A DNA stretch of 12,167 bases, from the IMG/VR virus record IMGVR_UViG_2617270997_000007, positions 1-12,167 of that record; one strand, given 5' to 3'. Numbering within the stretch: position 1 is the stretch's first letter; each line of letters opens with the position of its first letter. Below, piece after piece: positions 1-12,167 of this stretch. The stretch comes from a virus. Its lineage: Duplodnaviria > Heunggongvirae > Uroviricota > Caudoviricetes. The notes beneath the pieces were generated by a model. That model ran no database searches and had not been told where the DNA came from. It worked only from the letters and a program-made list of their open reading frames with translations. The position numbers and the translations under genes are program-made.

Positions 1-31
1 GGTAAATCTTTAAATTCCATCGTCAACCTCA

Positions 32-184
32 TCAGTCGGAGTTTCTTGCTAACCAGCGACGCGCGCCAGCTTCGGTTTTAAACGTTTTGCTTTTGGTATA
101 TGTCATGGCGGTGAATGTGCCGTCCTGGTTGGGGAACACACCACATACCAGAGATTCGCTGTTGCCAAGATCGATAGTATCCAT
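32..184 (-). CDS. Small hypothetical protein (50 aa) downstream of the repressor gene, at the position lambda uses for rex-type accessory genes
   Basis: The track ORF 32..289 begins with TTG and has no Shine-Dalgarno. The in-frame ATG at 184 is preceded on the - strand by GAGG with about 6 nt spacing, giving MDTIDLGNSESLVCGVFPNQDGTF... The longer TTG form cannot be excluded. Confidence 0.35.
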   Translation of the reverse strand: MDTIDLGNSESLVCGVFPNQDGTFTAMTYTKSKTFKTEAGARRWLARNSD

Positions 185-373
185 GCTGACCTCATTACCC
201 CTTAACGCCGGGTAGCGGAACTGTTTGCTGAGAACACCGTGCGGTGTCTTGATGGGTGGTAATTTAGTTTTATCATGAATGTTGGTCAAGCATTTTTAAT
301 GAGAAAACTCAATATTTAATGCAAAATAAAGCCAATACATTGAAATGTAAGGCTTTAAAATTTGTGAAGGGGG

Positions 374-781
374 TTACTGATGTTTGTTACGTTTGCGAGC
401 TTCTAGTAGCTCGGTGAATAGGCGATTAAAATTCTCAACGCGGGCACGGAGTTCGCTGATTTGTGCTTGCTGCTCTGATTTTGGAAGTGCGCGATACAAT
501 CGCAACATCTCCAACTCATCTTCCGATAAGTCTAAGGCGCTGTTGAGTGCTACTGGTGGATCTGGTGTTTTATCCTCGTCACCAAACAGTATCCAAGTTG
601 GTGAACATTGCAATACCTCAGCCAGGCGATGCAAATTTTGCCCGCGCGGGGCTGTATGGTCGCTTTCCCATAGTGAAATTGATGAGCCAGATACGCCAGC
701 GGCTTTGCTTAAATCGTTTTGACTTAAACCAACCTGTTTGCGTCTTTCTCTAATTCGTTGACCTAAAGTTTTCTCGTTCAT
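374..781 (-). CDS. dicA: HTH (XRE-family) prophage repressor, DicA-like, 135 aa, no peptidase S24 domain
   Basis: Complete ORF, MNEKTLGQRIRERRKQVGLSQNDLSKAAG... with the motif LQCSPTWILFGDEDK that I recall from E. coli DicA (also 135 aa). Divergent from a Cro-like gene. Too short to carry a LexA-like autocleavage domain. Confidence 0.8.
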   Translation of the reverse strand: MNEKTLGQRIRERRKQVGLSQNDLSKAAGVSGSSISLWESDHTAPRGQNLHRLAEVLQCSPTWILFGDEDKTPDPPVALNSALDLSEDELEMLRLYRALPKSEQQAQISELRARVENFNRLFTELLEARKRNKHQ

Positions 782-858
782 ATTTAGATATCTTAATAAC
801 CCTTGACTTGAGATTCCTTGAATGATTACTATTGAGAAAACTCAACTTTGGAGGGGTG
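782..858. promoter_or_regulatory. Divergent promoter/operator region between the repressor and Cro-like genes
   Basis: 77-bp intergenic spacer between divergent start codons. TTGACT at 803-808, an 18-bp spacer, then TACTAT at 827-832 could drive the Cro-like gene. GGAGGGG at 850-856 is its ribosome-binding site. Operator half-sites were not resolved by eye. Confidence 0.45.
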
Positions 859-1086
859 ATGTTTAAATCAGACGTAATTAATTTTTATGGGACGAAAGCC
901 AAAGTAGCGAAAGCTGCTGGTGTTGATCCATCTGCTGTTTCTCAATGGGGGGAACTGGTTCCTGAAGGTCGCGCGATGCGCCTGCAAGAGGCATCCGGCG
1001 GGGAACTTCAGTACGACCCCAAAGTTTATGACGAATATCGTAAGGCAAAGCGGGCGGGGCGGTTGAACAATGAAAATCACCCCTGA
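859..1086 (+). CDS. dicC: Cro/DicC-like small DNA-binding protein (75 aa)
   Basis: ATG 859 preceded by GGAGGGG; the track ORF starts further upstream at a TTG (832). Small basic protein divergent from the DicA-like repressor, the classic cro position. Sequence MFKSDVINFYGTKAKVAKAAGVDPSAVSQWGELVPEGRAMRLQEASGGELQYDPKVY... The symbol is from memory of DicC and is not verified. Confidence 0.55.
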   Translation: MFKSDVINFYGTKAKVAKAAGVDPSAVSQWGELVPEGRAMRLQEASGGELQYDPKVYDEYRKAKRAGRLNNENHP

Positions 1087-1621
1087 ACAGGTTTGTGAGG
1101 CTCTGGATGCCTGGGTATGTCGACCAGGAATGACACAGGAGCAAGCGACGATATTAATCACGGAAGCATTCTGGGCTCTGAAAGAACGCCCGAACATCGA
1201 TGTTCAACGCGTCACGTTTAATGATGGCGAGGTTGATCAACGGGCGCTGGGCGTTAACCGGGTGAAGATATTCGAACGCTGGAAAGCTATCGACACCAGG
1301 GATAAGCGGAAAAAATTCACGGCGCTGATTCCGGCAATTATGGAGGCTATCCGAATTAGTGATTTCAGGTTGTATCGTGAGATCAGTGATGGAAAAAGCA
1401 TTACGTACATGATCGCCGGATTAAACAAAGAATATGGCGATGTGGTGGAGTCCGGGCTGCTTTTTGCGGATCCAGCTGTTGTGGAACGTGAGACTGACGA
1501 GCTTATAGAAAAAGCTATTGCTTTCAAGCATGCGTATCGTCAGCAATATCAATATTACTTTGCAGATAAACAAATGTCTGCCAGGGGTTTGTATGAGTAT
1601 CGATGCACTACGATGGGCTAA
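1070..1621 (+). CDS. YdaT-like / CII-position early regulatory protein (183 aa)
   Basis: Complete ORF immediately after the Cro-like gene, overlapping its end by 17 nt. Lambda cII and Rac ydaT occupy this position. The family assignment rests on position and memory, not on a search. Confidence 0.45.
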   Translation: MKITPEQVCEALDAWVCRPGMTQEQATILITEAFWALKERPNIDVQRVTFNDGEVDQRALGVNRVKIFERWKAIDTRDKRKKFTALIPAIMEAIRISDFRLYREISDGKSITYMIAGLNKEYGDVVESGLLFADPAVVERETDELIEKAIAFKHAYRQQYQYYFADKQMSARGLYEYRCTTMG

Positions 1622-2633
1622 AAAGGTGAAAACCGGCAGTTCATCCAGTAAGTCTGTATTGACCTGGCTTGCTGATATGTGCGGTGCCGATTTGTGTGCA
1701 TACCCGTCTGTATCTGCACTGGCAGAAGTAACGGAACTAAACAAAAAGACTGTGCAGGACAGCTTACGACACCTGATGGAGATTGGGTTAATTGTTGATA
1801 CCGGTGAGAGAAAAGGCAGAACAAAGCAAATTGTGGTGTACCGACTTATCGGTGTAGAAGAAAGTGTTGCCGAGCCTGAATACACCCAAAAACGGGAGTC
1901 TTTAAAGGTGGGTAAAATTGGTGCTGTTAATAAAAACAGTACCGAAAATGGTTATGTTTCAGCACAAAACAGACCCAAAAACGGAACTCTTAGCTGCATG
2001 GAAAATAACCAAAGACACCCAAATTTTCCATCAAAGACACCCAAAAACGGATCACGGAACCCAAAGGAACCCAAAGATCTAAACCCCACACATAACGCAC
2101 GCGAGAGTGCTCCGACCAGTGAGCAGGAAGTTTTGTCGTTACAGGCAGCACCCCTTGTATTCCTGGATGGCCTGAGCGAACCCATCGGAAAATTACCGAT
2201 GACCGATAGCTGGTATCCGTCACGGGATTTTCGACGACGGGCTGCGTTGTGGGGGATGGCTTTGCCGGAGACAGAATTTACACCTGCTGAACTTGCCGCC
2301 TTCCGGGACTACTGGGCAGCGGAGGGGAAAGTGTTTACGCAGATTCAGTGGGAGCAGAAATTCGCCCGTCACGTAAATCACGTCAGGGCGCAGGTTAAAC
2401 CAGTCAGCAAGGGGGTAAACCATGCAGCAGCACCAGGTGGCACCGCATCACGGGCAGTTCAGGAAATTCGGGCAGCACGTGAGCAGTGGGAACGTGAAAA
2501 CGGATTTATCAGCGACGGAAACGGTCTGGAAGCTGTGGGAACTCATGGGGGAGGTTTATTCGAACCGCTGGACCCAGAAGAACGGGGCCGCACCTTCGAA
2601 GCTCTGGATTGCACAGATTGGCGCGATGACTGA
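1593..2633 (+). CDS. Phage replication initiation protein (O-like): N-terminal HTH/winged-helix domain, low-complexity linker, C-terminal domain
   Basis: ATG 1593 (MSIDALRWAKK...) chosen over the longer track start at 1518. N-terminus has an HTH-like segment (SVSALAEVTELNKKTVQDSLRHLMEIGLI). The linker is encoded by iteron-like DNA repeats. It lies immediately upstream of a lambda-P-like gene. Confidence 0.6.
   Translation: MSIDALRWAKKVKTGSSSSKSVLTWLADMCGADLCAYPSVSALAEVTELNKKTVQDSLRHLMEIGLIVDTGERKGRTKQIVVYRLIGVEESVAEPEYTQKRESLKVGKIGAVNKNSTENGYVSAQNRPKNGTLSCMENNQRHPNFPSKTPKNGSRNPKEPKDLNPTHNARESAPTSEQEVLSLQAAPLVFLDGLSEPIGKLPMTDSWYPSRDFRRRAALWGMALPETEFTPAELAAFRDYWAAEGKVFTQIQWEQKFARHVNHVRAQVKPVSKGVNHAAAPGGTASRAVQEIRAAREQWERENGFISDGNGLEAVGTHGGGLFEPLDPEERGRTFEALDCTDWRDD
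1966..2078. repeat. Iteron-like direct repeats with an adjacent AT-rich tract inside the O-like gene (candidate replication origin)
   Basis: The 13-mer acccaaaaacgga occurs at 1973-1985 and 2039-2051; caaagacacccaaa at 2010-2023 and 2032-2045; ggaacccaaa in tandem at 2056-2065 and 2066-2075. An AT-rich stretch lies just upstream (1921-1972). Confidence 0.4.
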
Positions 2634-3087
2634 GCAGCAAATCCGACAGGTCTGCCGCCAGTGCATGGACCGCTGCCGGGCGGGTGAAACATGGCCTCCG
2701 GACCTGGCTGAGTTTGTGGCGCTGATTTCAGAAAGCGGGGCCAATCCATTTGGCCTGACGGTGGATGCTGTGATGGAGGAGTACCGCCGCTGGCGTGATG
2801 AGTCCTGGCGATATGACGGAAGCGACAAATATCCGTGGCCTCAGCCTGTGCTGTACCACATCTGCCTCGAAATGCGTACCAGAGGGATTGAGCGCCAGAT
2901 GACGCAGGGTGAGTTAAAACGACTTGCGGAACGGCAACTGACGAAATGGGCAAAGCATGTTGGTAACGGGATGAGTGTTCCGCCAGTGCGACGACAACTG
3001 GAAGGGGCGAAACACCCGCAAGGGCCAACGCCAATTGAACGGCTGAAACAGGAATACGAACGCCGGAAGGCAGCTGGTTTTATTTGA
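2422..3087 (+). CDS. Replication protein P-like (DnaB helicase loader), 221 aa
   Basis: C-terminal two-thirds aligns by eye with lambda P as I remember it: PPDLAEFVALISE to PSPGQFVAWCREE, and YDGSDKYPWPQPVLYHIC...GELKRLAERQL to YPDAESYPWKSNAHYWLV...AELRRKAADEL. ATG 2422 has a strong AGGGGG site 7 nt upstream. Alternative starts are 2545 and 2626 (ATGACTGA overlapping the O-like stop). Confidence 0.7.
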   Translation: MQQHQVAPHHGQFRKFGQHVSSGNVKTDLSATETVWKLWELMGEVYSNRWTQKNGAAPSKLWIAQIGAMTEQQIRQVCRQCMDRCRAGETWPPDLAEFVALISESGANPFGLTVDAVMEEYRRWRDESWRYDGSDKYPWPQPVLYHICLEMRTRGIERQMTQGELKRLAERQLTKWAKHVGNGMSVPPVRRQLEGAKHPQGPTPIERLKQEYERRKAAGFI

Positions 3088-3120
3088 ATCTGAGAAACGA
3101 TTTTGTCGGAGGAAATTTTA

Positions 3121-3891
3121 ATGGAAACCGTATTTGACGCACTGAAAGCAATGGGAAAAGCCACATCGGTAGAACTGGCCGCGCGACTTGATATCAGTCG
3201 TGAAGAGGTTCTCAACGAGCTGTGGGAACTCAAAAGAAATGACGTCGTTGATAAAACTGGTCACACCTGGTTTCTGGCTGGCGAAGGTGAATCCCGGGTA
3301 ACCGAAGAGCGGCCAGTAAAATCTGAAGCACAGGATATGCTGACCGGAGAGGTCGAACAAAAAGTTACCGCAGACATGATGATTGAGTTTATCGGTCAGG
3401 ATGGTGCTAAAACGTGTGAGGAACTGGCGGGTAAGTTCGGCGTCAGTACTCGCAAGGTTGCCTCCACGCTGGCGGTGGTAACCGCAATGGGGCGGCTGGC
3501 ACGCGTTAATCAGAACGGTAAATTTCGTTACTGCATGCCGGGCGATAATTTACCAGCAGAGCCGAAAGCCGCGCTGGTAACGGAAAGTGATGGTAAGGCC
3601 TTTCCTCAGCCAGCAGGTGCTGCGTTACCAGTCCGGGAAGCCGCAACACAGGAAGAAATTAAAACAGAAACTGTGGCGGACATTGTGCAGCCGTTGCCAT
3701 CGTTTACCGAAACGCAAGCAGATGAGCTGATTTTTCCGTCCCTTCGCAGGGCAAACCTGGCGCTGCGCAGGGCGAAAAGTGATGTTCAGAAGTGGGAGCG
3801 AGTCTGCGCCGCGCTGCGGGAGCTGAACAAGCACCGGGATATTGTTCGACAGATTACTGATTCTTCCCGCCGTGTTGTATCGGAAAAGTGA
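3121..3891 (+). CDS. Hypothetical protein with two winged-helix-like segments (256 aa)
   Basis: ATG 3121 with GGAGG 8 nt upstream; the track ORF starts at TTG 3103. Two HTH-like stretches: [26 protein letters not shown] and [31 protein letters not shown]. First gene of a coupled operon. Confidence 0.6.
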
Positions 3892-3906
3892 TTGCCGGAG
3901 GCGCTT

Positions 3907-4299
3907 ATGGCAAAAGTATTTACACCAGAAGAGCGGGAAGAAGTGAAGGCGCGCATTGTGGAATTCGTGCGCCTGAGCGGACGAGAAACTTTTCGACAAC
4001 TGGCAGATAAAACGGGTGTCAGTAAGACCGCTATTCGTCGTTTATCTGGTGCGCTTGCGGCCAGTGGTGATGTCTGGCTCTCTGGTTGCGGGGTATTTCC
4101 ATCAGAGCAGGCGTATCGCGTATGGCGTAAGACACCGGAGAAGGCTGCTGACCCGACACTGATTCGAAAGTTACCTGACGGAGAAATACGTCGTTACAAC
4201 AGACGGCAGAACATAATTTTTCGTGAGTGCCGCCAGAGCGAAGTTATGCAGCGTGTGCTGGCGTTCTATCGGGGAAACTTTCAGGAGGTGATGGAGTGA
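3907..4299 (+). CDS. Hypothetical protein with an HTH-like segment (130 aa)
   Basis: ATG 3907 with GGAGG 5 nt upstream; the track ORF starts at TTG 3892. Contains FRQLADKTGVSKTAIRRL. Its stop TGA 4297-4299 overlaps the next gene's GTG start. Confidence 0.55.
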   Translation: MAKVFTPEEREEVKARIVEFVRLSGRETFRQLADKTGVSKTAIRRLSGALAASGDVWLSGCGVFPSEQAYRVWRKTPEKAADPTLIRKLPDGEIRRYNRRQNIIFRECRQSEVMQRVLAFYRGNFQEVME

Positions 4300-4592
4300 G
4301 GGTCAGAGTTTATATTGCCGGTCCAATGACGGGATATGAAAATTTCAACCGTGAGGCGTTTCACAAGGCGGAAGAGGAACTGAAACGGGAAGGGCATACC
4401 GTCTTAAACCCGGCAGTACTTCCGGACGGGCTGACACAGCCGCACTACATGGATATTTGCATGGCAATGATTCGTTGTGTGGATGCGATTTACATGCTGA
4501 ATGGCTGGCAGCGGTCAGCGGGCGCTAAGGCAGAGCTGGCACTGGCGGAGAAACTGGGGCATGCAGTGATTTATCAGGAGGTGGCTCAATGA
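4296..4592 (+). CDS. DUF4406 / nucleoside 2-deoxyribosyltransferase-like small protein (98 aa)
   Basis: GTG 4296 with AGGAGG 7 nt upstream and a GTGA start/stop overlap. Motif VYIAGPMTGYENFN, then a conserved acidic region, as in the deoxyribosyltransferase/Rcl-like fold. Assignment is from motif memory. Confidence 0.55.
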   Translation: MRVRVYIAGPMTGYENFNREAFHKAEEELKREGHTVLNPAVLPDGLTQPHYMDICMAMIRCVDAIYMLNGWQRSAGAKAELALAEKLGHAVIYQEVAQ

Positions 4593-5056
4593 GAGAGGTT
4601 AACTATGAGGCGCTTCGTGAGGCAGCACAAAACTATCAGTCGACGCTGGCGTGGTATCAGGCTATCCCGGACAGCCCAAATGCTGAACGGGATTGTGATG
4701 CGGCTCTTGCTGCATTTAAGCGTCACATCCGTCATCGGGAAGCGGATATTATCGCTGATTTGCTGGATGGACTGGAAGAAGCAAAATCACAACTCAAAGA
4801 GCAGCGTGAGTATTACGAAGGCGTTATCTCTGATGGGAGCAAGCGTATTGCTGAACTGGAAGCGCGGGAAGTTCAATTACCGACTCGCTACGACCTTCGA
4901 TATGGACACCCGATAAATGCAGATGAGCGACATGTCATGATACCTAAAGAAAATGGCAGTTGGCTTTACCTGATTGACCTAGAACACGCATTACGCGTCT
5001 CTGGCATTCGCATCAAAGGAGAGGAGCATGGAAATAAAACCCAGAGGATGAGTTAA
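4589..5056 (+). CDS. Hypothetical phage protein with a predicted coiled-coil region (155 aa)
   Basis: ATG 4589 overlaps the upstream stop (ATGA), with GGAGG upstream. No recognisable catalytic motif. Confidence 0.6.
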   Translation: MREVNYEALREAAQNYQSTLAWYQAIPDSPNAERDCDAALAAFKRHIRHREADIIADLLDGLEEAKSQLKEQREYYEGVISDGSKRIAELEAREVQLPTRYDLRYGHPINADERHVMIPKENGSWLYLIDLEHALRVSGIRIKGEEHGNKTQRMS

Positions 5057-5086
5057 GCAATATCGTTTTATTTCCGGTAAAAGAGG

Positions 5087-5385
5087 ATGACCCTCGTAAT
5101 CAGGTTAATTTTCTTTATGAGCCATCGGAAAGACCATATTGTCATCACGCCTCTGTCCGGGTTGACGAAAAAGAGCGTCAGGTCCGCTGTAAAATCTGCG
5201 GTGCAGTTGTGGAGCCATTTGACTGGATGCTCTCTGTGGCGAAAAGAGAAACCAGACTGGCAGATGATGTAAGGCACTTGCGCCAGGAGGAGCGGGAAAG
5301 GCGAAAAAATATAGAAAAGCTAATTCAGATTGAGCGTAACGCGAAAGCGCGGATACGCAGGGCGACAAAATCCAGAACTGAATAA
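5087..5385 (+). pseudogene. Zinc-ribbon/coiled-coil ORF with a disrupted start: open frame 5038-5385 has no ATG/GTG/TTG before 5209. Possible frameshift at the T-run 5109-5116 or non-canonical initiation
   Basis: Frame-1 translation is protein-like over about 115 codons: ...NQVNFLYEPSERPYCHHASVRVDEKERQVRCKICGAVVEPFDWMLSVAKRETRLADDVRHLRQEERERRKNIEKLIQIERNAKARIRRATKSRTE*. It fills an otherwise empty 420-bp gap in a tightly packed operon. The only upstream ATG (5087) is in another frame. Confidence 0.3.
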
Positions 5386-5454
5386 TTAAATTTAGCTCTG
5401 TTAAAAATTTAATCCTTAACCGGAGGGATTTCTGCACCCTCAGAACATCAGGAG

Positions 5455-5472
5455 GCCGCCCGAAAGGGCGGT
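5455..5472 (+). promoter_or_regulatory. GC-rich hairpin with GAAA loop between the Shine-Dalgarno AGGAGG (5450-5455) and the ATG at 5479
   Basis: Stem ccgccc (5456-5461), loop gaaa, stem gggcgg (5466-5471), plus a possible G-U closing pair 5455/5472. No U-tract follows, so it is not a typical terminator. Folding would bring the SD from 23 nt to about 7 nt from the start codon. Confidence 0.35.
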
Positions 5473-5478
5473 AGTTAA

Positions 5479-5661
5479 ATGCGAAAGTTTAAAATAATTA
5501 TTGAAACGGGAATAGCCGGTGGAGATTTCGAGGATGAATTCGAAGTGGATGATGATGCGACGCCTGATGAAATACATGACGAAGCAAAAGATATTTTCTT
5601 TAACTACTGCAATTACTCATATCACGAAATAAAAGACGAAGAGGAAGAGCAAAATGGCTGA
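5479..5661 (+). CDS. Small, highly acidic protein (60 aa)
   Basis: MRKFKIIIETGIAGGDFEDEFEVDDDATPDEIHDEAKDIFFNYCNYSYHEIKDEEEEQNG: about 40% Asp/Glu. Complete ORF in the coupled operon. Confidence 0.55.
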   Translation: MRKFKIIIETGIAGGDFEDEFEVDDDATPDEIHDEAKDIFFNYCNYSYHEIKDEEEEQNG

Positions 5662-5830
5662 TTTTGGTTCAACTAAATACAACGTCAGTTTTGAAGCATG
5701 GCATGAACTGTTAATGGACTATGCAGAGTTACGTGGTGGCAGTGCTGCTGATGCTGAAGCATGGCGTGATGATTATGAAGCAGGAAAAACTCCGGTCGAA
5801 GCATATTGTGATGAGTGGGGCGATGAATGA
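5654..5830 (+). CDS. Small acidic protein (58 aa), not in the supplied ORF track
   Basis: ATG 5654 with GAGGAAG 6 nt upstream, overlapping the previous stop. Translation MADFGSTKYNVSFEAWHELLMDYAELRGGSAADAEAWRDDYEAGKTPVEAYCDEWGDE*. Its stop TGA 5828-5830 overlaps the next ATG at 5827 (ATGA). Confidence 0.45.
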   Translation: MADFGSTKYNVSFEAWHELLMDYAELRGGSAADAEAWRDDYEAGKTPVEAYCDEWGDE

Positions 5831-6342
5831 GCGAGATTAATTATCAGGAAGGGCATGAAACGGCAGGGCAGGCAAAACCAGTTGCATGGCGATATCGCTA
5901 CGTGAAAAAAGACGTTACAGACTTTCAGGGGAAGCCGTGGGCTGGTGACTGGAAATATGTACCGACAAAAGAGGATTGTAACGACAGGCCGAACTATGAA
6001 ATTCAGGCCTTATTCATCGGCCCGCCAGTCCCGGTGACATCAGAAGGACTGGTTAAAGCCGTGCGCTTTTATGAACAGGTAAAGCGTGAGAATCCGCCAG
6101 TCGAAACAGGAGCATGGAAGGATGCTGTTGACTGGGTGCTCAGAGAGGCCTGCTGCGCTGCCATTCTGGGTAAAGCCGACAATCCACCAGCATCCGGCAA
6201 TCAGGTTAGCGAATTAACAATGTGGGTTAAACGACTGGTCAGTCAACTGAAAAAAGCTCAGCCGGACTGCAAATTACCGGAGAAGGCGATGGATTACCTG
6301 AAACGAAATGGACTGATAAGCGTGGAGGATGTTTTACGATGA
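5827..6342 (+). CDS. Hypothetical phage protein (171 aa), last gene of the coupled operon
   Basis: Complete ORF with ATGA coupling to the upstream small ORF. No recognisable motif. Confidence 0.6.
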   Translation: MSEINYQEGHETAGQAKPVAWRYRYVKKDVTDFQGKPWAGDWKYVPTKEDCNDRPNYEIQALFIGPPVPVTSEGLVKAVRFYEQVKRENPPVETGAWKDAVDWVLREACCAAILGKADNPPASGNQVSELTMWVKRLVSQLKKAQPDCKLPEKAMDYLKRNGLISVEDVLR

Positions 6343-6462
6343 ATATTTAGACTAAAGAGTTTGTAACGCTATGTAAGTGATTTTTTCTGGTTTAGATATT
6401 TATATGTTCGGCCAAATTGAGGTGTGTTTAAATGTTATTGCACATTGATTGTAGGGGGAATA

Positions 6463-6642
6463 ATGAAAAACGCATTGCAGTTTTTGTTTGTTGCGTTCTG
6501 GTTGTTCGCATCATGTATGCCCATCATCTTCACAGCAAGGTATATGGAAAAAATTGATGTTTTGATATTAATGTTTGGACATATAAATGCCCTTTTTTTA
6601 GGGGTGTTCATGGCGGTCATGTGCATTGAATACTGGCGGTAA
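6463..6642 (+). CDS. Small hydrophobic membrane protein (59 aa, two predicted TM helices) in an AT-rich moron
   Basis: ATG 6463 with GGGGGA just upstream; the track ORF starts at GTG 6424. Sequence MKNALQFLFVAFWLFASCMPIIFTARYMEKIDVLILMFGHINALFLGVFMAVMCIEYWR. The surrounding region 6343-6660 is visibly AT-rich compared with its neighbours. Confidence 0.45.
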   Translation: MKNALQFLFVAFWLFASCMPIIFTARYMEKIDVLILMFGHINALFLGVFMAVMCIEYWR

Positions 6643-6784
6643 ATACAGCGAACGCCATTGGTTTAGTTGGATATTTACTGTGCCGGACAAAAACGGTTTG
6701 CGGGGAAATCTTAGTTAAGTAGAATAACTGCGGGTGCTTGAGGCTATCTGTCTCAGGCATGAACACCAAAAGGCAGATAGAGAA

Positions 6785-6851
6785 AAGCCCCAGTTAACAT
6801 TACGCGTCCTGCAAGACGCTTAACATTAATCTGAGGCCATATCTATGCGAC
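6785..6851 (-). ncRNA. sok: Sok-like antisense RNA of the hok locus (approximate position)
   Basis: Expected by analogy with hok/sok loci. A candidate - strand promoter has TTGACC (complement of 6882-6887), an 18-bp spacer and TAATCT (complement of 6858-6863), directing transcription leftward across the hok leader. The 3' end is not defined. Confidence 0.25.
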
Positions 6852-6904
6852 ACATAGAGATTAGCCTCTTACGGACCGAAAGGTCAAGGAGAAGCAGGCT
6901 ATGA
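6845..6904 (+). CDS. Mok-like short upstream ORF (19 codons) coupled to hok
   Basis: ATG 6845, translation MRHIEISLLRTERSRRSRL*, with stop TGA 6902-6904 overlapping the hok ATG (ATGA). Too short to judge on composition alone. Confidence 0.25.
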   Translation: MRHIEISLLRTERSRRSRL

Positions 6905-7056
6905 AGCAGCAAAAGGCGATGTTAATCGCCCTGATCGTCATCTGTTTAACCGTCATAGTGACGGCACTGGTAACGAGGAAAGACCTCTGCGAGGTACGAA
7001 TCCGAACCGGCCAGACGGAGGTCGCTGTCTTCACAGCTTACGAACCTGAGGAGTAA
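6901..7056 (+). CDS. hokD: Hok/Gef-family type I toxin (51 aa), HokD/RelF-like
   Basis: Translation MKQQKAMLIALIVICLTVIVTALVTRKDLCEVRIRTGQTEVAVFTAYEPEE*, which matches Hok-family toxins and, as far as I recall, E. coli HokD closely. AAGGAG lies 9 nt upstream. Absent from the ORF track because it is under 60 aa. Confidence 0.85.
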   Translation: MKQQKAMLIALIVICLTVIVTALVTRKDLCEVRIRTGQTEVAVFTAYEPEE

Positions 7057-7126
7057 GAGACCCGGCGAGGGAGAAATCCCTCGCCACCTCTGATGTGGCA
7101 GGCATTCTCAACGCACCCGCACTTAA

Positions 7127-7150
7127 CCCGCTTCGGCGGGTTTTTGTTTT
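7127..7150 (+). terminator. Rho-independent terminator at the 3' end of the hok transcript
   Basis: Stem cccgc / loop ttcg / stem gcggg followed by tttttgttttt. A separate perfect 9-bp hairpin (ggcgaggga-gaaa-tccctcgcc, 7064-7085) lies just after the hok stop and may be the 3' fold-back element of hok mRNA. Confidence 0.75.
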
Positions 7151-7272
7151 TATTTTCAACGCATTTGAAGTTCTGGACGGTGCCGGAATAGAATCAAAAA
7201 TACTTAAGTAGCGCGCAGGGATAAGAGGGATGGTCCCTTAAAGGGGAGAGCTAATTATCCGGAAGGATTCTG

Positions 7273-7524
7273 ATGATGAACATCGAAGAACTGCGTAAAA
7301 TTTTTTGTGAAGATGGCCTCTATGCTGTGTGCGTTGAAAATGGAAATATTGTTAGTCATTACCGCATTGTGTGTTTGCAAAAAAATGGGGCTGCGTTAAT
7401 TAATTTTGTGGATGCCCGAGTGACGGACGGATTTATCTTGCGCGACGGTGAGTTTGTCACTTCATTACAGGTATTGAAAGAGATCGGAATAAAAGCTGGC
7501 TTTTCTGCTTTTTCAGAAGAATAA
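7273..7524 (+). CDS. rem: Rem-like small protein (83 aa)
   Basis: Complete ORF with GGAAGGA 5 nt upstream of ATGATG. Same size and position (between hok and the DUF968 gene) as rem in the K-12 Qin prophage. Symbol is from synteny and size, not sequence recall. Confidence 0.4.
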   Translation: MMNIEELRKIFCEDGLYAVCVENGNIVSHYRIVCLQKNGAALINFVDARVTDGFILRDGEFVTSLQVLKEIGIKAGFSAFSEE

Positions 7525-7590
7525 ACTCATCTACAATCTTGCGCGGGGCTGAACTCCCGCTGAGTAACACCGTGCCACCGGAGAAAACCG

Positions 7591-7869
7591 ATGGCACGCA
7601 ACGCAAAATATTACAAACATGATAATTCGACCGTTCTTGCCCACACGCACGAGCGGTATTCTCACGCATTTAAGTCAGACTGGTACCAGCATCCCCCATG
7701 CACTGAAGAACAGGCCGAATGGCTCATTCAGTGTTACCGCAGGCGCGGATGCGAGGTTAAAAAAGCCCTTAGCCTCGACTACCGTCACTGGATAATCTCC
7801 GTCAGGCTTCCTTACTCCGAACGCCCACCGCGTCTGTCCCGCACATTCCAGCAACGCATCTGGAGGTAA
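7591..7869 (+). CDS. Hypothetical phage protein (92 aa)
   Basis: Complete ORF with GGAG 8 nt upstream. Its stop lies 1 nt before the GTG start of the DUF968 gene. Confidence 0.55.
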   Translation: MARNAKYYKHDNSTVLAHTHERYSHAFKSDWYQHPPCTEEQAEWLIQCYRRRGCEVKKALSLDYRHWIISVRLPYSERPPRLSRTFQQRIWR

Positions 7870-7870
7870 C

Positions 7871-8917
7871 GTGCGGGTATTACTTCGACCTGTTCTGGTA
7901 CCGGAACTCGGGCTGGTGATCGTTAAGCCGGGCCGTGAATCCATGCCGGTATTCCACAATACCCGGGTACTGGTGGAGCCGGAACCGAAAAGCATGCGTA
8001 ATCTGCCGTCCGGGGTCGTTCCTGCCGTTCGCCAGCCGCTGGCGGAGGATAAATCATTACTGCCATTTTTCAGCGACGAACGAGTGATTCGTGCTGCTGG
8101 TGGCGCTGGCGCATTGTCTGACTGGTTACTGCGCCATGTTAAATCCTGCCAGTGGCCACACGGCGATTATCACCACAGTGAAACCGTCATTCACCGTTAT
8201 GGTACCGGCGCAATGGTGTTGTGCTGGCACTGCGACAACCAGCTGCGCGACCAGACCTCCGAATCACTCGGGCAACTTGCTCACCAAAACCTGTCTGCAT
8301 GGATGATTGACGTCATACGCCATGCAATGAATGGCTCGCAGGAACGGGAATTATCGCTGGCTGAATTATCCTGGTGGGCGGTCCGCAATCAGGTGGCGGA
8401 CGCGCTACCGGAAGCGGTATTACGTCGTTCGCTGGGGTTGCGTGCGGAAAAAATCCGCTCAATGTACCGTGAAAGCGACATCGTACCGGGAGAGCAGACC
8501 GCCACCAGCATACTGAAGCAGCGCACAAAAAATCTTGCGCCGCTGCCTCACGCCCACCAGCAAAACCCGCCACAGGAAGAGACGGTGGTCAGCATTGCCG
8601 TTGATCCTGAGTCTCCGGAATCTTTCATGAAACGACCTAAACGTCGCCGCTGGGTTAACGAGAAATACACACGCTGGGTGAAGACACAGCCGTGTGCGTG
8701 TTGTGGTAAGCCAGCCGACGATCCCCATCACCTGATTGGTCATGGTCAGGGCGGAATGGGGACAAAATCTCACGATATTTTCACGCTACCGCTGTGTCGG
8801 GAGCATCACAACGAGCTTCATGCGGATCCTCTGGCGTTCGAAGAAAAGCATGGTTCTCAGGTTGATTTAATTTTTCGTTTTCTTGATCACGCCTTTGCAA
8901 CTGGCGTGCTTGGGTAA
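7871..8917 (+). CDS. ydfU: DUF968-family protein (YdfU-like, 348 aa) with a C-terminal HNH-like zinc-finger motif
   Basis: GTG 7871 with GGAGG upstream. C-terminus CACCGKPADDPHHLIGHGQGGMGTKSHDIFTLPLCREHHNELH has the CxxC...HH...H...C..HH..H pattern of HNH nucleases. Size and position match Qin YdfU from memory. Confidence 0.6.
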   Translation: MRVLLRPVLVPELGLVIVKPGRESMPVFHNTRVLVEPEPKSMRNLPSGVVPAVRQPLAEDKSLLPFFSDERVIRAAGGAGALSDWLLRHVKSCQWPHGDYHHSETVIHRYGTGAMVLCWHCDNQLRDQTSESLGQLAHQNLSAWMIDVIRHAMNGSQERELSLAELSWWAVRNQVADALPEAVLRRSLGLRAEKIRSMYRESDIVPGEQTATSILKQRTKNLAPLPHAHQQNPPQEETVVSIAVDPESPESFMKRPKRRRWVNEKYTRWVKTQPCACCGKPADDPHHLIGHGQGGMGTKSHDIFTLPLCREHHNELHADPLAFEEKHGSQVDLIFRFLDHAFATGVLG

Positions 8918-8929
8918 AAGAGGTGACTG

Positions 8930-9304
8930 ATGCTCATAGATTTGGTTTTACCTTACCCGCCGACGGTGAACACTTACTGGCGACGCCGTGGCAGCACATA
9001 TTTTATCTCGGAGGAGGGAAAGCGTTATCGCCGGGCTGTGGCGCTTATTGTTTGCCAGCAGCGGCTGAAATTAAGCCTGTCCGGAAGGCTGGCGATAAAG
9101 GTGATTGCAGAGCCACCGGATAAGCGTCGTCGCGACCTGGACAATATCCTGAAAGCACCGCTGGATGCGCTGACGCATGCGGGAGTGTTAATGGACGATG
9201 AGCAGTTTGATGAAATCAATATCGTTCGTGGTCAGCCAGTATCTGGTGGACGTCTGGGGGTGAAGATTTACCCCATAATGCATGAAGAGCAGGTCAAAAA
9301 ATGA
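8930..9304 (+). CDS. rusA: RusA crossover-junction endodeoxyribonuclease (Holliday junction resolvase), 124 aa
   Basis: Motifs PYPPTVNTYWRRRG, RRRDLDNILKAPLDALT and MDDEQ line up with the RusA signature (WPPSNNRYY, RRRDLDN, DD.Q). AGAGGTGA upstream. Confidence 0.85.
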   Translation: MLIDLVLPYPPTVNTYWRRRGSTYFISEEGKRYRRAVALIVCQQRLKLSLSGRLAIKVIAEPPDKRRRDLDNILKAPLDALTHAGVLMDDEQFDEINIVRGQPVSGGRLGVKIYPIMHEEQVKK

Positions 9305-10122
9305 AACTGGAAGATTTACCGAAATACTACTCCCCAAAATCCCCTGGCCTGACCGATGCATCGGCCTCAACGTCAAAAGATGCGCTGAGTATCACTGATG
9401 TGATGGCCGCGCAGGGCATGACACAGAATCGGGCTGAGATGGGTTTTTCTGCGTTCCTGGGGAAAATGGGCATCAGTATGAATGACAGGGTGCGGGCAAC
9501 AGAATTACTGGCAGATTATGCACTCAGTCGGTGCGATCGTGTGGCGGCGTTGAGAAAACTTCCGGCAGAAATAAAACCGGTAGTGATGCGCATTATGGCT
9601 TCGTACGCTTTTGAGGATTATGCCCGCAGCGCAGCGAGTAAAAAGCAGTGCCCTTGTTGCTATGGGGAAAAATTTATTGAAAGCATAGTTTTTACAAACA
9701 AGGTCCAGTATCCGGATGGTAAGCCGCCGGTATGGGCAAAGTGTACGAAAGGTGTGTATCCGTCTTACTGGGAAGAATGGAAAAAAGTCAGGGAGGTGGT
9801 AAAAGTTGCCTGTCCGGAGTGTGGCGGAAAGGGTGAGGTTTCCACCGCCTGTAAGGATTGCCGTGGGCGTGGTGTCGCCATTCACCGTGAAGAGTCGGTA
9901 AAACGTGGTATGCCTGTTATCAGAGACTGCCAGCGTTGTGGTGGTCGTGGCTATGAAAGACTACCATCAACGGAGGCATTTAATGCTATATGCGAGGTGA
10001 CAAACCAGATAACACGCGCGTCATGGGAAAAAACAGTTAAGAAATTCTATGATGCGCTGGTGACCCGGTTTGATATTGAAGAAGCATGGGCTGAGCGGCA
10101 GTTAAAAAAGGTAACTAGGTAA
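9301..10122 (+). CDS. Late-gene antitermination protein Q-like (273 aa) with CxxC zinc fingers
   Basis: ATG 9301 overlaps the rusA stop (ATGA). Cys-rich C-terminal region CPECGGKGEVSTACKDCRGRG...CQRCGGRGY. Sits directly upstream of a lambda-type PR', the canonical Q position. Confidence 0.6.
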   Translation: MKLEDLPKYYSPKSPGLTDASASTSKDALSITDVMAAQGMTQNRAEMGFSAFLGKMGISMNDRVRATELLADYALSRCDRVAALRKLPAEIKPVVMRIMASYAFEDYARSAASKKQCPCCYGEKFIESIVFTNKVQYPDGKPPVWAKCTKGVYPSYWEEWKKVREVVKVACPECGGKGEVSTACKDCRGRGVAIHREESVKRGMPVIRDCQRCGGRGYERLPSTEAFNAICEVTNQITRASWEKTVKKFYDALVTRFDIEEAWAERQLKKVTR

Positions 10123-10128
10123 CAAGGT

Positions 10129-10156
10129 TGATTTTTCCGGAATCTGTGGTAAATTC
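10129..10156 (+). promoter_or_regulatory. Late promoter PR' (lambda-type), with the downstream pause-region motif
   Basis: -35 TTGATT (10129-10134), 16-bp spacer containing TGg, -10 TAAATT (10151-10156), then cgtcataacgATGGG. Lambda PR' as I recall it is TTGACT ... TAAATT tgactcaacgATGGG, so the -10 and the aacgATGGG block are shared. Confidence 0.6.
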
Positions 10157-10204
10157 GTCATAACGATGGGCCTTTTATGCCTGACGTTAGAAGAGTTTCT
10201 ACAA

Positions 10205-10229
10205 CCCGCCGCCGAGCGGGTTTTTTATT
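10205..10229 (+). terminator. Rho-independent terminator about 50-65 nt downstream of PR' (tR'-like)
   Basis: Stem cccgc (10206-10210), loop cgccga, stem gcggg (10217-10221), then tttttt. Confidence 0.6.
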
Positions 10230-10264
10230 GCGGAATTAATTACGGACCGTTATTATTCTGCTCC

Positions 10265-10340
10265 CGGCCCTTTAGCTCAGTGGTGAGAGCGAGCGACTCA
10301 TAATCGCCAGGTCGCTGGTTCAAATCCAGCAAGGGCCACC
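10265..10340 (+). tRNA. ileZ: tRNA-Ile2 (anticodon CAU, lysidine type; formally also readable as Met), 76 nt with encoded CCA
   Basis: Cloverleaf folded by hand: acceptor ggccctt/aagggcc, D-stem gctc/gagc, anticodon loop ctCATaa, T-arm gctgg-ttcaaat-ccagc, discriminator A, CCA. Near-identical to E. coli ileX as recalled. Confidence 0.85.
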
Positions 10341-10347
10341 ATCACAT

Positions 10348-10424
10348 ACCGCCATTAGCTCATCAGGAAAGAGCGCCAGCCTTCGAAGCTGGTTGCGCGG
10401 AGTTCGGGTCCCCGAAGGCGGTCC
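10348..10424 (+). tRNA. argN: tRNA-Arg (anticodon UCG), 77 nt, with non-canonical features
   Basis: Anticodon arm ccagc-ctTCGaa-gctgg is perfect and D-stem gctc/gagc is good. The acceptor stem has one A-A mismatch at pair 6, the T-stem has one A-C mismatch, and the T-loop is ttcgggt (G where the conserved A58 is expected). CCA is encoded. Confidence 0.6.
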
Positions 10425-10437
10425 ATTATCTGTATCC

Positions 10438-10514
10438 TGCGTTGTTAGCTCAGCCGGACAGAGCAATTGCCTTCTAAGCAATCGGTCACTGGTTCGAATC
10501 CAGTACAACGCGCC
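10438..10514 (+). tRNA. argO: tRNA-Arg (anticodon UCU), 77 nt with encoded CCA
   Basis: Clean cloverleaf: acceptor gcgttgt/acaacgc, D-stem gctc/gagc, anticodon arm attgc-ctTCTaa-gcaat, T-arm actgg-ttcgaat-ccagt, discriminator G, CCA. Confidence 0.85.
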
Positions 10515-10529
10515 ACACTTATTTTCCCT

Positions 10530-10552
10530 GGCTCGCTTTTGCGGGCTTTTTT
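10530..10552 (+). terminator. Rho-independent terminator after the tRNA cluster
   Basis: Stem ggctcgc (with one G-U pair), loop tttt, stem gcgggc, followed by a 7-nt T-run. Confidence 0.6.
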
Positions 10553-10557
10553 TTAAA

Positions 10558-10770
10558 TGTCTCACAATTCAGGCGGTTGACTGTTGTCTGGTTTGCGGGG
10601 AGTTTGTTAAAAGAAACTGGCATGGTGAATCCCCCTGTGCGGAGGGGCAATCAGCGAGTAGGTATATGGGATAATCGCGGATTCAGGTGCTGGTACTGAA
10701 TTCACCGGGAGGCACCCGGCACCATGCAATGGCACATAGCGCCACTCTCCAGCCCCTCTCCGGAGGGGCT
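10558..10770 (+). repeat. Structured repeat module A: promoter-like -35, two conserved GC hairpins and a terminal terminator hairpin (candidate small RNA or leader cassette)
   Basis: Shares ordered blocks with module B: ctcacaattcag; TTGACT (10574-10579); tttgttaaaa; hairpin cccct-gtgcgg-agggg (10629-10644); hairpin ccggg-aggca-cccgg (10702-10716) followed by ATG; terminator gcccctc-tccg-gaggggc (10749-10766) plus tttt. Confidence 0.6.
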
Positions 10771-10964
10771 TTTCTGTGCCGGATACATCACAGTTTCTGG
10801 AACCTTAGGTACTACAGTATCAGTCAGGGTGCTATATTTTCAGATGTGATGAAAGCCTGTCAGCAGGCAGGGCGTATCGGAAATGACCCAGTAGAGAAAA
10901 CGTTGACTCAGATACCGGTGCTGAGTTACCGGGAAACCGGCATCACATGACCGCTATCCTTCCA

Positions 10965-10991
10965 GGCCCATCCGCTCCGGTGGGCCTTTTT
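10965..10991 (+). terminator. Rho-independent terminator between the two repeat modules
   Basis: Stem ggccca (10965-10970), 10-nt loop, stem tgggcc (10981-10986), then ttttt. It closes a short unit containing a possible 33-codon ORF at 10849-10950, which has no convincing Shine-Dalgarno and is not called. Confidence 0.45.
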
Positions 10992-11028
10992 ACTGCAGAA
11001 AACAGGTTCCCCGTTAAATGCTATGTTG

Positions 11029-11262
11029 CTCACAATTCAGTAAGTTGACAGTTGCCTGTCAGACTGGGCATTTGTTAAAAAAATTTCGCATGGTGAATCC
11101 CCCTGAGCGGAGGGGCGACTGGTGACGGTATAATCTCTGATTATCAAAACGAGAATGACGCGGGTTTAGTGGCACCGGGCTGAACTCACCGGGAGGCACC
11201 CGGCACCATGTGCATGATGATACAGATACGCGGCTTTAGCCCCTCTCCGGAGGGGCTTTCTT
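11029..11262 (+). repeat. Structured repeat module B, paralogous to module A
   Basis: Same blocks in the same order: ctcacaattcag (11029-11040); TTGACA (11045-11050); tttgttaaaa; hairpin ccccctgagcggagggg; a TATAAT at 11129-11134; caccgggaggcacccggcaccATG; terminator gcccctc-tccg-gaggggc (11239-11256) plus T-tract. It has about 20 bp of insertion relative to A. Confidence 0.6.
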
Positions 11263-11267
11263 ATGGA

Positions 11268-11297
11268 CAAAAAAAGCCCGCGCTGGGAGACGCGGGC
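11268..11297 (-). terminator. Minus-strand intrinsic terminator immediately after module B
   Basis: On the + strand an A7 tract (11269-11275) precedes the hairpin gcccgcg-ctgggaga-cgcgggc (11276-11297). Read on the - strand this is hairpin plus U-tract. No convincing - strand gene lies upstream of it. Confidence 0.4.
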
Positions 11298-11490
11298 GGC
11301 AAGGAATAAACAATAAAACGTGAAGTAATATTTCAGCTGGCGAATAATACCCCATAGTAATCACTCTGCGCAACTGCGCGGTCTTTTTCGAATTGCGGGC
11401 TGTAGTCTCCCTTCTGCCATTGTCCTGTAACTTCCGGACTTCAGCCTGCTCCTTATCTGACTCACAACATTATCCCGCCCGGGAGGATTC

Positions 11491-11679
11491 ATGGCATTTA
11501 AACACTATGACGTGGTCAGGGCGGCATCGCCGTCAGACCTTGCGAAACGACTGACACAAAAACTGAAGGAGGGCTGGCAGCCGTTTGGTAGTCCGGTGGC
11601 CATAACCCCTTATACCCTGATGCAGGCGATTGCAGCAGAAGGTGATGTGGTGGTCAGTGGTGCAACTGAGCCGGAGTGA
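11491..11679 (+). CDS. DUF1737-like small protein (62 aa), commonly found just upstream of lambdoid lysis cassettes
   Basis: Complete ORF with GGGAGG 5 nt upstream. Translation [62 protein letters not shown]. Family assignment is from memory of position and size. Confidence 0.55.
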   Translation: MAFKHYDVVRAASPSDLAKRLTQKLKEGWQPFGSPVAITPYTLMQAIAAEGDVVVSGATEPE

Positions 11680-11837
11680 TACTACGTCATCGTACTGGCC
11701 CGGCATTCCAGGCCATAAAAGACGGTCTGGCAGTGGGACTAAATGCACTGACGCTGACGGATATTACCAAAAATGCAACGTATGGCGTTGAGATAGAAAG
11801 TCTGGTGCTGGAGATAAATGCACCGGCATCATCATAA
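11676..11837 (+). CDS. Possible small ORF (54 codons, GTG start) coupled to the DUF1737-like gene; not in the ORF track
   Basis: GTG 11676-11678 overlaps the upstream TGA (GTGA). Translation [53 protein letters not shown]. The upstream ribosome-binding site is weak. Confidence 0.3.
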
Positions 11838-11921
11838 AAAGTGAGCCAGTCAAATGGAAGGTATCGTTAAACTCACCGGTAGTGTCAGTGGGTCGTCTGA
11901 GACGCCTGCATGAGTTATCAG

Positions 11922-11950
11922 AGCCATCAGTACTTAACTGGTGGCTTTTT
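11922..11950 (+). terminator. Rho-independent terminator 28 nt upstream of the holin start
   Basis: Stem gccatcag (11922-11929), loop tacttaa, stem ctggtggc (one G-U pair), followed by ttttttatt. Confidence 0.55.
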
Positions 11951-11977
11951 TATTGTTGTCAGCTTCCGGATAACGGG

Positions 11978-12167
11978 AGACGGGGTATGTACCAGATGGA
12001 AAAAATCACAACAGGTGTGTCATACACCACGTCAGCGGTGGGAACGGGCTACTGGTTCCTGCAGTTGCTGGACAGGGTTTCCCCGTCTCAGTGGGCGGCA
12101 ATAGGCGTGCTGGGGAGTCTGCTGTTTGGGCTGCTGACATATCTGACTAACCTGTATTTCAAAATCA
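11978..12167 (+). CDS. S: Class II holin (phage 21 S21-type pinholin), 3' end cut off by the window
   Basis: Translation [60 protein letters not shown]... resembles S21 as recalled ([63 protein letters not shown]...). Two in-frame starts at codons 1 and 4 (ATG 11978 and 11987). No stop before position 12167. Confidence 0.8.

Follow-up and report, generated by a model that had tools for sequence, protein, structure and literature searches.

Direct repeats within the initiator gene of a PPompW-type lambdoid prophage: a candidate lambda-style replication origin

What is the function of a cluster of direct repeats that lies within the coding sequence of rep, the gene for a 346-amino-acid (aa) replication initiator, on a 12,167-nucleotide stretch of Caudoviricetes DNA (IMG/VR record IMGVR_UViG_2617270997_000007, positions 1 to 12,167; the whole stretch is hereafter the window)? 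With a probability of about 0.75, positions 1879-2080 are the replication origin of a PPompW-type lambdoid prophage, located inside the linker of its own initiator gene. The repeats are likely to be the binding sites (iterons) of the initiator, as predicted for a lambda-style origin. This reading is preferred because the repeats are clustered, independent of reading frame and linked to the N-terminal domain (N-domain) of the initiator, and because a P-like helicase-loader gene lies downstream; for this module, we infer both iteron binding and origin activity. The arrangement is of a familiar kind, and the origin of this module was found nowhere described in the literature searched, which left many subscription papers outside, so that an earlier description is possible.

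Direct repeats in the linker codons of rep

Regarding the repeats themselves, the heptamer ACCCAAA occurs six times in the window when both strands are counted, against 2.24 copies expected from shuffled sequences, and all six copies (positions 1884, 1973, 2017, 2039, 2059 and 2069) are on the + strand. The chance probability of finding six copies within 192 nt on one strand is estimated at about 1e-9. The spacings of 89, 44, 22, 20 and 10 are not multiples of 3, and the codon phases of the six copies in rep are 0, 2, 1, 2, 1 and 2. A preliminary description of this DNA had pointed to ACCCAAA-based repeats at spacings of 22, 20 and 10 bp, all of which are present in the sequence, and had placed the cluster at 1966-2078; repeats do occupy that interval, but its left limit falls too far to the right, with a perfect copy at 1879-1902 and a degenerate one at 1942-1951. 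The unit was also drawn too narrowly. A 24-mer with copies at 1879-1902, 1968-1991 and 2034-2057 forms the best repeat family, and the true repeat unit is the 11-mer CCCAAAAACGG with its flanks, in a dyad-like site of about 24 bp, instead of ACCCAAA. Two repeats that had been taken for exact 13-mers are indeed exact and extend to 14 nt (CAAAGACACCCAAA at 2010-2023 and 2032-2045).

Counted by this unit, three iterons in the window are perfect (cores starting at 1885, 1974 and 2040), two are decayed and a further one (2018) is a symmetric variant. The array at 1879-2057 consists of direct repeats in one orientation (+), with at least three copies, and corresponds to aa 98-153 of rep; the repeats as a whole fall in linker codons aa 98-162, between the N-terminal domain and the DnaT domain. 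The 11-mer is translated once as T-Q-K-R and twice as P-K-N-G. No other local direct-repeat family with three or more copies was found in the 12-kb window. Edwardsiella, Enterobacter, Serratia and other relatives keep the first iteron in the same position, and the last iteron is present in every relative with a wing of the DTGERKG type. The element GGGTAAAATTGG is probably a decayed iteron, as it is aligned to an intact CCCAAAAACGG in Edwardsiella phage EPP-1. The right part of the symmetric variant CCCAAATTTTCC belongs to a 9-nt inverted repeat, ATGGAAAAT (1998-2006) and ATTTTCCAT (2023-2031).

The comparison covered relatives with the same N-domain, taken from phage records and from one-genome-per-species contigs, and includes Edwardsiella, Enterobacter, Scandinavium, Kluyvera, Plesiomonas, Serratia, Yersinia, Reinekea, Vibrio phage H20, E. 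coli phage phiV10 and Acinetobacter phage AP22. In 16 loci from 11 genera and phages, words of the CC[CG]AAAACGG type are confined to the rep linker and to the + strand, and they occupy all three codon phases (52, 17 and 1 occurrences), the encoded peptide shifting among TQKR, PKNG and HPNF while the DNA word stays the same across frames, hosts and base compositions. Where the word encodes P[KE]NG in frame in these loci, proline is CCC in 37 of 37 cases (12% elsewhere in the same genes), lysine is AAA in 25 of 25 (46% elsewhere), glutamate is GAA in 12 of 12 (54%) and asparagine is AAC in 37 of 37 (66%); in the flanking N-domain, the codon is identical at only 25-46% of conserved residues. The word also persists at 60-61% GC, in Burkholderia phage Bcep176 and in an EBPR (sludge-metagenome) podovirus. 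The use of different frames, the invariant codons and the changing peptide argue for selection on the DNA, implying that the repeats are maintained as DNA, independently of the reading frame, and the PKNG, TQKR and HPNF linker peptides are by-products of the DNA sites. The comparison across relatives that the preliminary description had proposed thus gave the opposite of a linker kept as protein and lost as DNA: the DNA word is kept and the peptide varies.

The consensus of 66 distinct sites, AA-N5-(c)CC-R-AAAA-C-GG-(g)a-N3-TT, spans about 24 bp, with dyad-like ends and an asymmetric centre, and each origin has a single symmetric variant, CCCAAATTT(T)GG/CC. The corresponding position in relatives, ahead of or at the last iteron, has CCCAAATTTGGG, CCCAATTTTGG or CCGTTTTTCC. 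The N-domain family comprises 2,275 clusters (50% identity) at E <= 1e-3 and 482 at E <= 1e-10; in 121 representatives, tetrapeptides that translate the word number 1.85 per linker, compared with 0.01 elsewhere.

According to a different explanation, slippage generated repeated peptides (PKNG-type) in a disordered linker, and the repetition of the DNA is a by-product without a function of its own. The region does encode a low-complexity linker, in-frame units of 24 bp occur in some relatives, such as Vibrio phage H20, and slippage is real, as a 10-bp deletion allele described below exists. This explanation is nevertheless very improbable and is largely refuted by the present data, as one DNA word is read in three frames to give different peptides, synonymous positions such as the CCC codons are invariant while the synonymous sites of the flanking domain are randomised, and the word is kept against the genomic GC bias. 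Still less credible is a ribosomal frameshift (slippery) site at CCCAAAAAC that yields alternative initiator isoforms. Truncated or frame-shifted database proteins that end near the repeats (P0005, P0008, P0023 and P0073) would fit such a site, but these variants are explained by indels, including the 10-bp deletion, several copies of the sequence exist, and conservation spans the flanks of about 24 bp. No copy in the window stands in the C-CCA-AAA phase that a -1 slip requires, and the idea was rejected since the codon phases do not fit.

The initiator, its loader and the match between repeats and winged helix

The rep protein matches the DnaT DNA-binding domain PF17948 of Pfam with 60.4 bits (cutoff 25, E = 1.4e-16, aa 202-267) and, partially, the DnaT model of NCBIfam with 90.8 bits. 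At its N-terminus, the Pfam match to HTH_36 (aa 36-67) scores 20.8 bits, under the cutoff of 25. An HTH_36-type winged helix is counted as present despite this score, on the evidence of the homologues, which carry PF13730, of the AlphaFold2 model and of the match to phrog_1032, 'replication initiation protein' (E = 7e-90). The AlphaFold2 model of aa 1-91 has a predicted local distance difference test (pLDDT) score of 89 and contains four helices and a beta-hairpin at 67-74 / 80-85. A Foldseek search with this model returned generic winged-helix DNA binders, the plasmid Rep-DNA complex 5kbj among them, and a PDB sequence search with the N-domain profile yielded weak matches to generic winged-helix proteins only. 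As expected of a lambda-type origin, a P-type helicase-loader gene lies directly downstream of rep, and its product matches Phage_lambda_P (PF06992) with 57.1 bits (cutoff 26) and the PHROG 'P-like helicase loader' with E = 4e-54.

The preliminary description had placed the repeats in the linker of an O-like gene. The linker stands, but membership of the O family does not, as rep has no match to Phage_rep_O (PF04492) in Pfam. An hhalign comparison with lambda O was insignificant (probability 3%), and direct homology to lambda O was rejected on these two results. The sole link between the two proteins consists of weak matches of the rep N-domain to the 'O-like' PHROGs 678 and 345, which lambda O matches too. 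Judged from its sequence, rep is O-like in function and in remote N-terminal similarity only, with an architecture of HTH_36 plus DnaT-C. A match to Rep_3 was likewise absent in Pfam.

Where the wing or the N-domain differs, repeats of another kind are found at the same linker position: eight copies of GGGGGTACAATTTTGCA in Moraxella phage Mcat8, four copies of GGTACCGAAATT in Acinetobacter phage Ab105-2phi, and peptide and DNA repeats peculiar to each in alphaproteobacterial, Desulfovibrio, Meiothermus and actinobacterial loci. Rac-SA53 ydaU and the gene of Actinobacillus phage pPE4, which have the DnaT half in common with the window and differ in the N-domain, are without the word. Because the word changes with the N-domain and genes sharing only the DnaT half are without it, the repeats evidently belong with the winged-helix N-domain and not with the C-terminal domain (C-domain).

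These observations also bear on the idea that the word is bound by a conserved host factor instead of the phage initiator, or is purely structural, for instance a bent A-tract array. Initiator-specific iterons normally diverge between phages, and the finding of the same 10-11-mer from Enterobacterales to Acinetobacter and Burkholderia phages is what such a factor or structure would produce. The idea is quite improbable, however, as the word is found only where a winged helix of the DTGERKG type is encoded and not in the DnaT-half-only genes, and the repeats swap together with the N-domain within one host genus (Acinetobacter phage AP22 versus Ab105-2phi). DnaA boxes (TTWTNCACA, one mismatch) are not enriched either, with 25 matches against 24.5 expected and none meaningful at the repeats.

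Elements beside the iterons and the case for initiation

The GGAACCCAAA 10-mers that follow the last iteron are an element separate from the iterons. Tandem Repeats Finder reports them as a perfect tandem at 2056-2076 (period 10, 100% match), in agreement with the tandem 10-mer pair noted in the preliminary description. Boxes of this type (RGAAY) occur past the last iteron in all lineages, in 2-4 copies 10-13 bp apart, and the order is conserved across lineages: direct iterons, one symmetric variant, the last iteron and, 5 nt on, the RGAAY boxes. The boxes are flanked by two GATC (Dam) sites, at 2050 and 2076, which are the sole GATC sites in 1473-6932 (5.4 kb). In enterobacterial relatives, CGGGATCC...AAAGATCT is conserved and encloses the boxes; AAAGATCT is also found in a Vibrio phage and stands in a different reading frame in EPP-1. 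Across the window (1-12167), GATC is rare in general, with 17 sites against 43 +/- 6 expected from shuffles.

Immediately to the right, at about 2073-2077, homology to the C-terminal half of the Rac-SA53 ydaU and pPE4 genes starts. These two genes (L107, about 1460-1520, and L108, about 1460-1510, respectively) correspond to the C-terminal half of the window gene from AAACCCCACACATA on, their N-domains being unrelated, and each contains a tandem just before the joint, GATACA in 2-3 copies (L107) and CAGATAA in 3 copies (L108), at the same position as the GGAACCCAAA pair of the window. In relatives of the Edwardsiella/Serratia/Plesiomonas type (L002, L090-L094), a GC-rich palindrome (CCCCC-AA-GGGGG) that is not in the window lies right after AGATCT, about 40-60 nt past the last iteron, and recalls the inverted repeat right of the lambda origin.

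Besides the broad occurrence of the word, several observations weigh against the origin reading. A lambda-like AT tract right of the iterons was not found by GC profile, nearest-neighbour stability or the profiles of 16 relatives anchored on the last iteron. Over the 30 nt past the last iteron, the AT content is 53% in the window and averages 59-63% in the 16 relatives. The AT-rich stretch of the preliminary description exists but is only moderate (32% GC at 1900-1959, with low stability also at 2002-2031), and as an AT tract it is not conserved: stability is lowest in two segments between iterons, 1927-1956 and 2002-2031, neither of which is kept as AT-rich in relatives, and the 1900-1960 stretch corresponds to decayed iterons at a place where relatives have further iterons. 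Within the array, polymorphism of the middle iteron and the decay of two copies suggest that perhaps only some copies are needed. Furthermore, cryptic prophages are numerous among the carriers, and at least one allele has a frameshift, so the activity of the window copy is not guaranteed.

The allele data come from 46 alleles of 80 near-identical loci, the viral-contig copies being 98-100% identical. Among these alleles, one variable site falls in 2002-2076, and iterons 1 and 3 and the boxes are invariant; at position 1983, in iteron 2, G is replaced by A in 9 of 46. In E. coli 12690 (L110, NZ_CP074977.1), one copy of GGAACCCAAA (10 bp, equivalent to window 2056-2065) is lost, and the gene is frameshifted and split, annotated in RefSeq as a helix-turn-helix protein and a DnaT-like pseudogene. 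This loss implies that the tandem is prone to slippage and that some copies of the module are dead.

The lack of an AT-rich unwinding element beside the repeats would also be compatible with sites that the initiator or another phage protein binds for a purpose other than initiation, with the true origin elsewhere; autoregulation of rep-P, a transcription roadblock and copy-number control by handcuffing are the candidates. An operator-like inverted CCGAAAACGG upstream of rep in Edwardsiella phages and prophages points in the same direction; it is a single copy about 18 nt upstream of the rep start (L002 at 1483; L091 and L093 at 1983), is absent from the window and may be an autoregulatory operator. 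Such a role in place of initiation is unlikely, as the 12-kb window has no second iteron-like cluster, a second conserved element of non-coding type, the RGAAY boxes, follows the repeats in all lineages, and the position, copy number, orientation and frame independence of the repeats mirror those of the lambda origin in gene O (PMC7466680). No Rfam family matches at 1800-2100.

If the repeats are the iterons of an origin, initiation would proceed in a lambda-like manner. Initiator dimers would use the winged helix to bind the iterons, with the recognition helix contacting the CC/GG half-sites and the basic wing (ERKGRTK) the A-tract or the flanks, and the bound initiators would assemble an O-some-like nucleoprotein complex. 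The adjacent segment, in which the last iteron is accompanied by the symmetric variant, both GGAAC boxes and the pair of Dam sites, would then open, and the DnaT-like C-domain would hold the single-stranded DNA (ssDNA) and/or dock the P-like protein bound to the host DnaB, leading to helicase loading. Rightward transcription from a pR-like promoter would cross the site, as in lambda.

Genomic context and relation to known replication systems

PPompW-type lambdoid prophages of enterohaemorrhagic E. coli share 98.8% identity with the window over 1500-2700, and the database records closest to it are of PPompW prophages that were submitted along with Shiga toxin (Stx) 2a phages. The module is carried by 909 of 5,426 complete E. 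coli genomes, O157:H7 and other enterohaemorrhagic strains among them, in up to 4 copies per genome, and among the matches listed, the rep gene is labelled in RefSeq only as 'DnaT-like ssDNA-binding domain-containing protein'. The gene order in Table 1 was taken from open reading frames (ORFs) and an annotated PPompW prophage.

Table 1. Features of the initiator module and its surroundings (window coordinates)
Feature	Position	Strand	Remarks
dicA/cI-like repressor gene	374-781	-	ORFs and annotated relative
pR-like sigma-70 promoter	803-832	+	consensus match only; upstream of the cro/dicC-like, YdaT-like, rep, P operon
cro/dicC-like gene	between pR-like promoter and YdaT-like gene		ORFs and annotated relative
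YdaT-like gene	1070-1621		ORFs and annotated relative
rep (replication initiator gene, 346 aa)	1593-2633	+	winged helix, repeat-rich linker, DnaT-like C-domain
Winged-helix DNA-binding domain coding region	1593-1862	+	aa 1-90; beta-hairpin wing DTGERKGRTKQIVVYRL
Iteron 1	1879-1902	+	core CCCAAAAACGG at 1885-1895; T-Q-K-R; invariant in 46 alleles
Probable decayed iteron GGGTAAAATTGG	1910-1921	+	codon-by-codon alignment with Edwardsiella phage EPP-1 (L002)
Degenerate iteron CCGAAAATGG	1942-1951	+	T-E-N-G
Iteron 2	1968-1991	+	core CCCAAAAACGG at 1974-1984; P-K-N-G; polymorphic
Symmetric iteron variant CCCAAATTTTCC	2018-2029	+	H-P-N-F-P
Iteron 3 (last)	2034-2057	+	core CCCAAAAACGG at 2040-2050; P-K-N-G; invariant in 46 alleles
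GATC (Dam) pair	2050-2079 (2050-2053 and 2076-2079)	.	flanks the boxes on both sides; AAAGATCT at 2073-2080
Two GGAACCCAAA boxes (RGAAY, 10-bp period)	2056-2075	+	start 5 nt past the last iteron
Module joint AAACCCCACACATAAC	2081-2096	+	rightward homology to Rac-SA53 ydaU and pPE4
DnaT-like ssDNA-binding domain coding region	2196-2393	+	aa 202-267; Pfam PF17948, NCBIfam DnaT
P-like helicase-loader gene (153 aa)	2626-3087	+	Pfam Phage_lambda_P and PHROG
DUF1627 gene	after P-like gene		ORFs and annotated relative

Transcription from the pR-like promoter would run through the putative origin. The first 29 nt of rep coincide with the end of the YdaT-like ORF, and the ATG of the P-like gene overlaps the rep stop (ATGACTGA); these overlaps, at 1593-1621 and 2626-2633, suggest translational coupling. 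In the deposited PPompW annotation, the P-like gene starts 39 nt later than 2626. Farther along the + strand of the window, a sok antitoxin RNA at 6732-6903 (Rfam, 107 bits) points to a prophage-borne toxin-antitoxin locus of the hok/gef type. The Q-like region is followed at 10266-10515 by three tRNA genes (Met-CAT, Arg-TCG and Arg-TCT), an arrangement common to many Stx-type lambdoid prophages, and downstream of this cluster two copies of the small RNA family STnc100 (Rfam, 136 and 165 bits) lie at 10591-10781 and 11059-11268, also on the + strand.

The architecture of the lambda origin inside gene O has been described (PMC7466680). Four lambda iterons (tCCCTCAAAACGAGGGa) stand in the linker of O at spacings of 20, 24 and 23 bp and in three frames, giving similar by-product peptides. 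In common with ori-lambda and with the Stx phages 933W and P27, the window has direct repeats in one orientation and in differing frames within the linker-coding middle of the initiator gene, sites of CCC...AAAAC...GGG flavour that tend towards a dyad (tCCCTCAAAACGAGGGa in lambda, CCCAAAAACGG(G) in the window), an initiator with an N-terminal winged helix, a P-like loader gene directly downstream, and an operon that runs from a pR-like promoter beside a cI/cro-type switch. In contrast, the window initiator falls outside Phage_rep_O and has a DnaT-like C-domain instead of the O C-terminus, the iteron core measures 11 nt as opposed to 18-19 nt, and the place of the AT tract of about 40 bp in lambda is taken by 2-4 RGAAY boxes and, in enterobacteria, paired GATC sites.

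DopC and DopE are the products of chromosomal genes that, in the description of Brezellec et al. (2017, PMC5509034), were domesticated from O/P-like genes of phages, and the same order of an HTH_36 N-terminus and a DnaT C-terminal motif, followed by a P-family protein, is found in that pair (PMC5509034). Neither iteron-like sequences nor an origin function is reported for dopC (PMC5509034), whereas the prophage gene in the window carries a full iteron array. The window rep looks like the undomesticated form of DopC in phages or mobile elements, and the module is likely to be the phage counterpart of the domesticated DopC/DopE helicase-loading pair. Replication regions with HTH_36 and YdaT-like genes have also been reported from non-lambdoid Stx phages of the 'Eru' type (PMC8951638, PMC8044961). 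These regions resemble the window in their presence in prophages of enterohaemorrhagic E. coli and in the combination, beside the repressor, of a YdaT-like gene with one for an HTH_36 protein; the papers classify gene content only, and in both of them the term 'iteron' is absent and no origin is defined (PMC8951638, PMC8044961). Iteron plasmids of the RepA/RepE/pi type (pSC101, F, R6K and RK2) have a winged-helix initiator and several directly repeated sites as well, the binding being a prediction in the present case. Plasmid iterons, however, lie outside rep, beside DnaA boxes and an AT-rich element, while the repeats of the window are intragenic, its DnaA boxes are at chance level and its rep is not of the Rep_3 family, so the module lacks the defining features of the plasmid type.

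A broader but tentative possibility, for which the odds are clearly less than even, is that one cassette, consisting of CC[CG]AAAACGG, the symmetric variant, the RGAAY boxes at 10-13 bp and the enteric Dam pair, is common to hundreds of diverged clusters of HTH_36 initiators in gamma- and betaproteobacterial phages. If so, the PKNG, QKRD and TENGT peptides would result purely from DNA sites that overprint the coding region, and the segment of RGAAY and GATC, not an AT tract, would be the methylation-sensitive site of opening or helicase loading. The initiators of unrelated prophages could then recognise the origins of one another, resulting in cross-activation or incompatibility among co-resident prophages.

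For the module in the window, the origin reading provides a concrete candidate origin for one class of 'non-lambda' prophage replication modules, whose targets can be recoded synonymously, and it would explain the low-complexity PKNG/QKRD/ENGT linkers in at least hundreds of protein clusters. As prophage replication drives the dosage of Shiga-toxin genes and the outcomes of induction, the location of the origin would be useful. The lambda paradigm would thereby be extended, not overturned.

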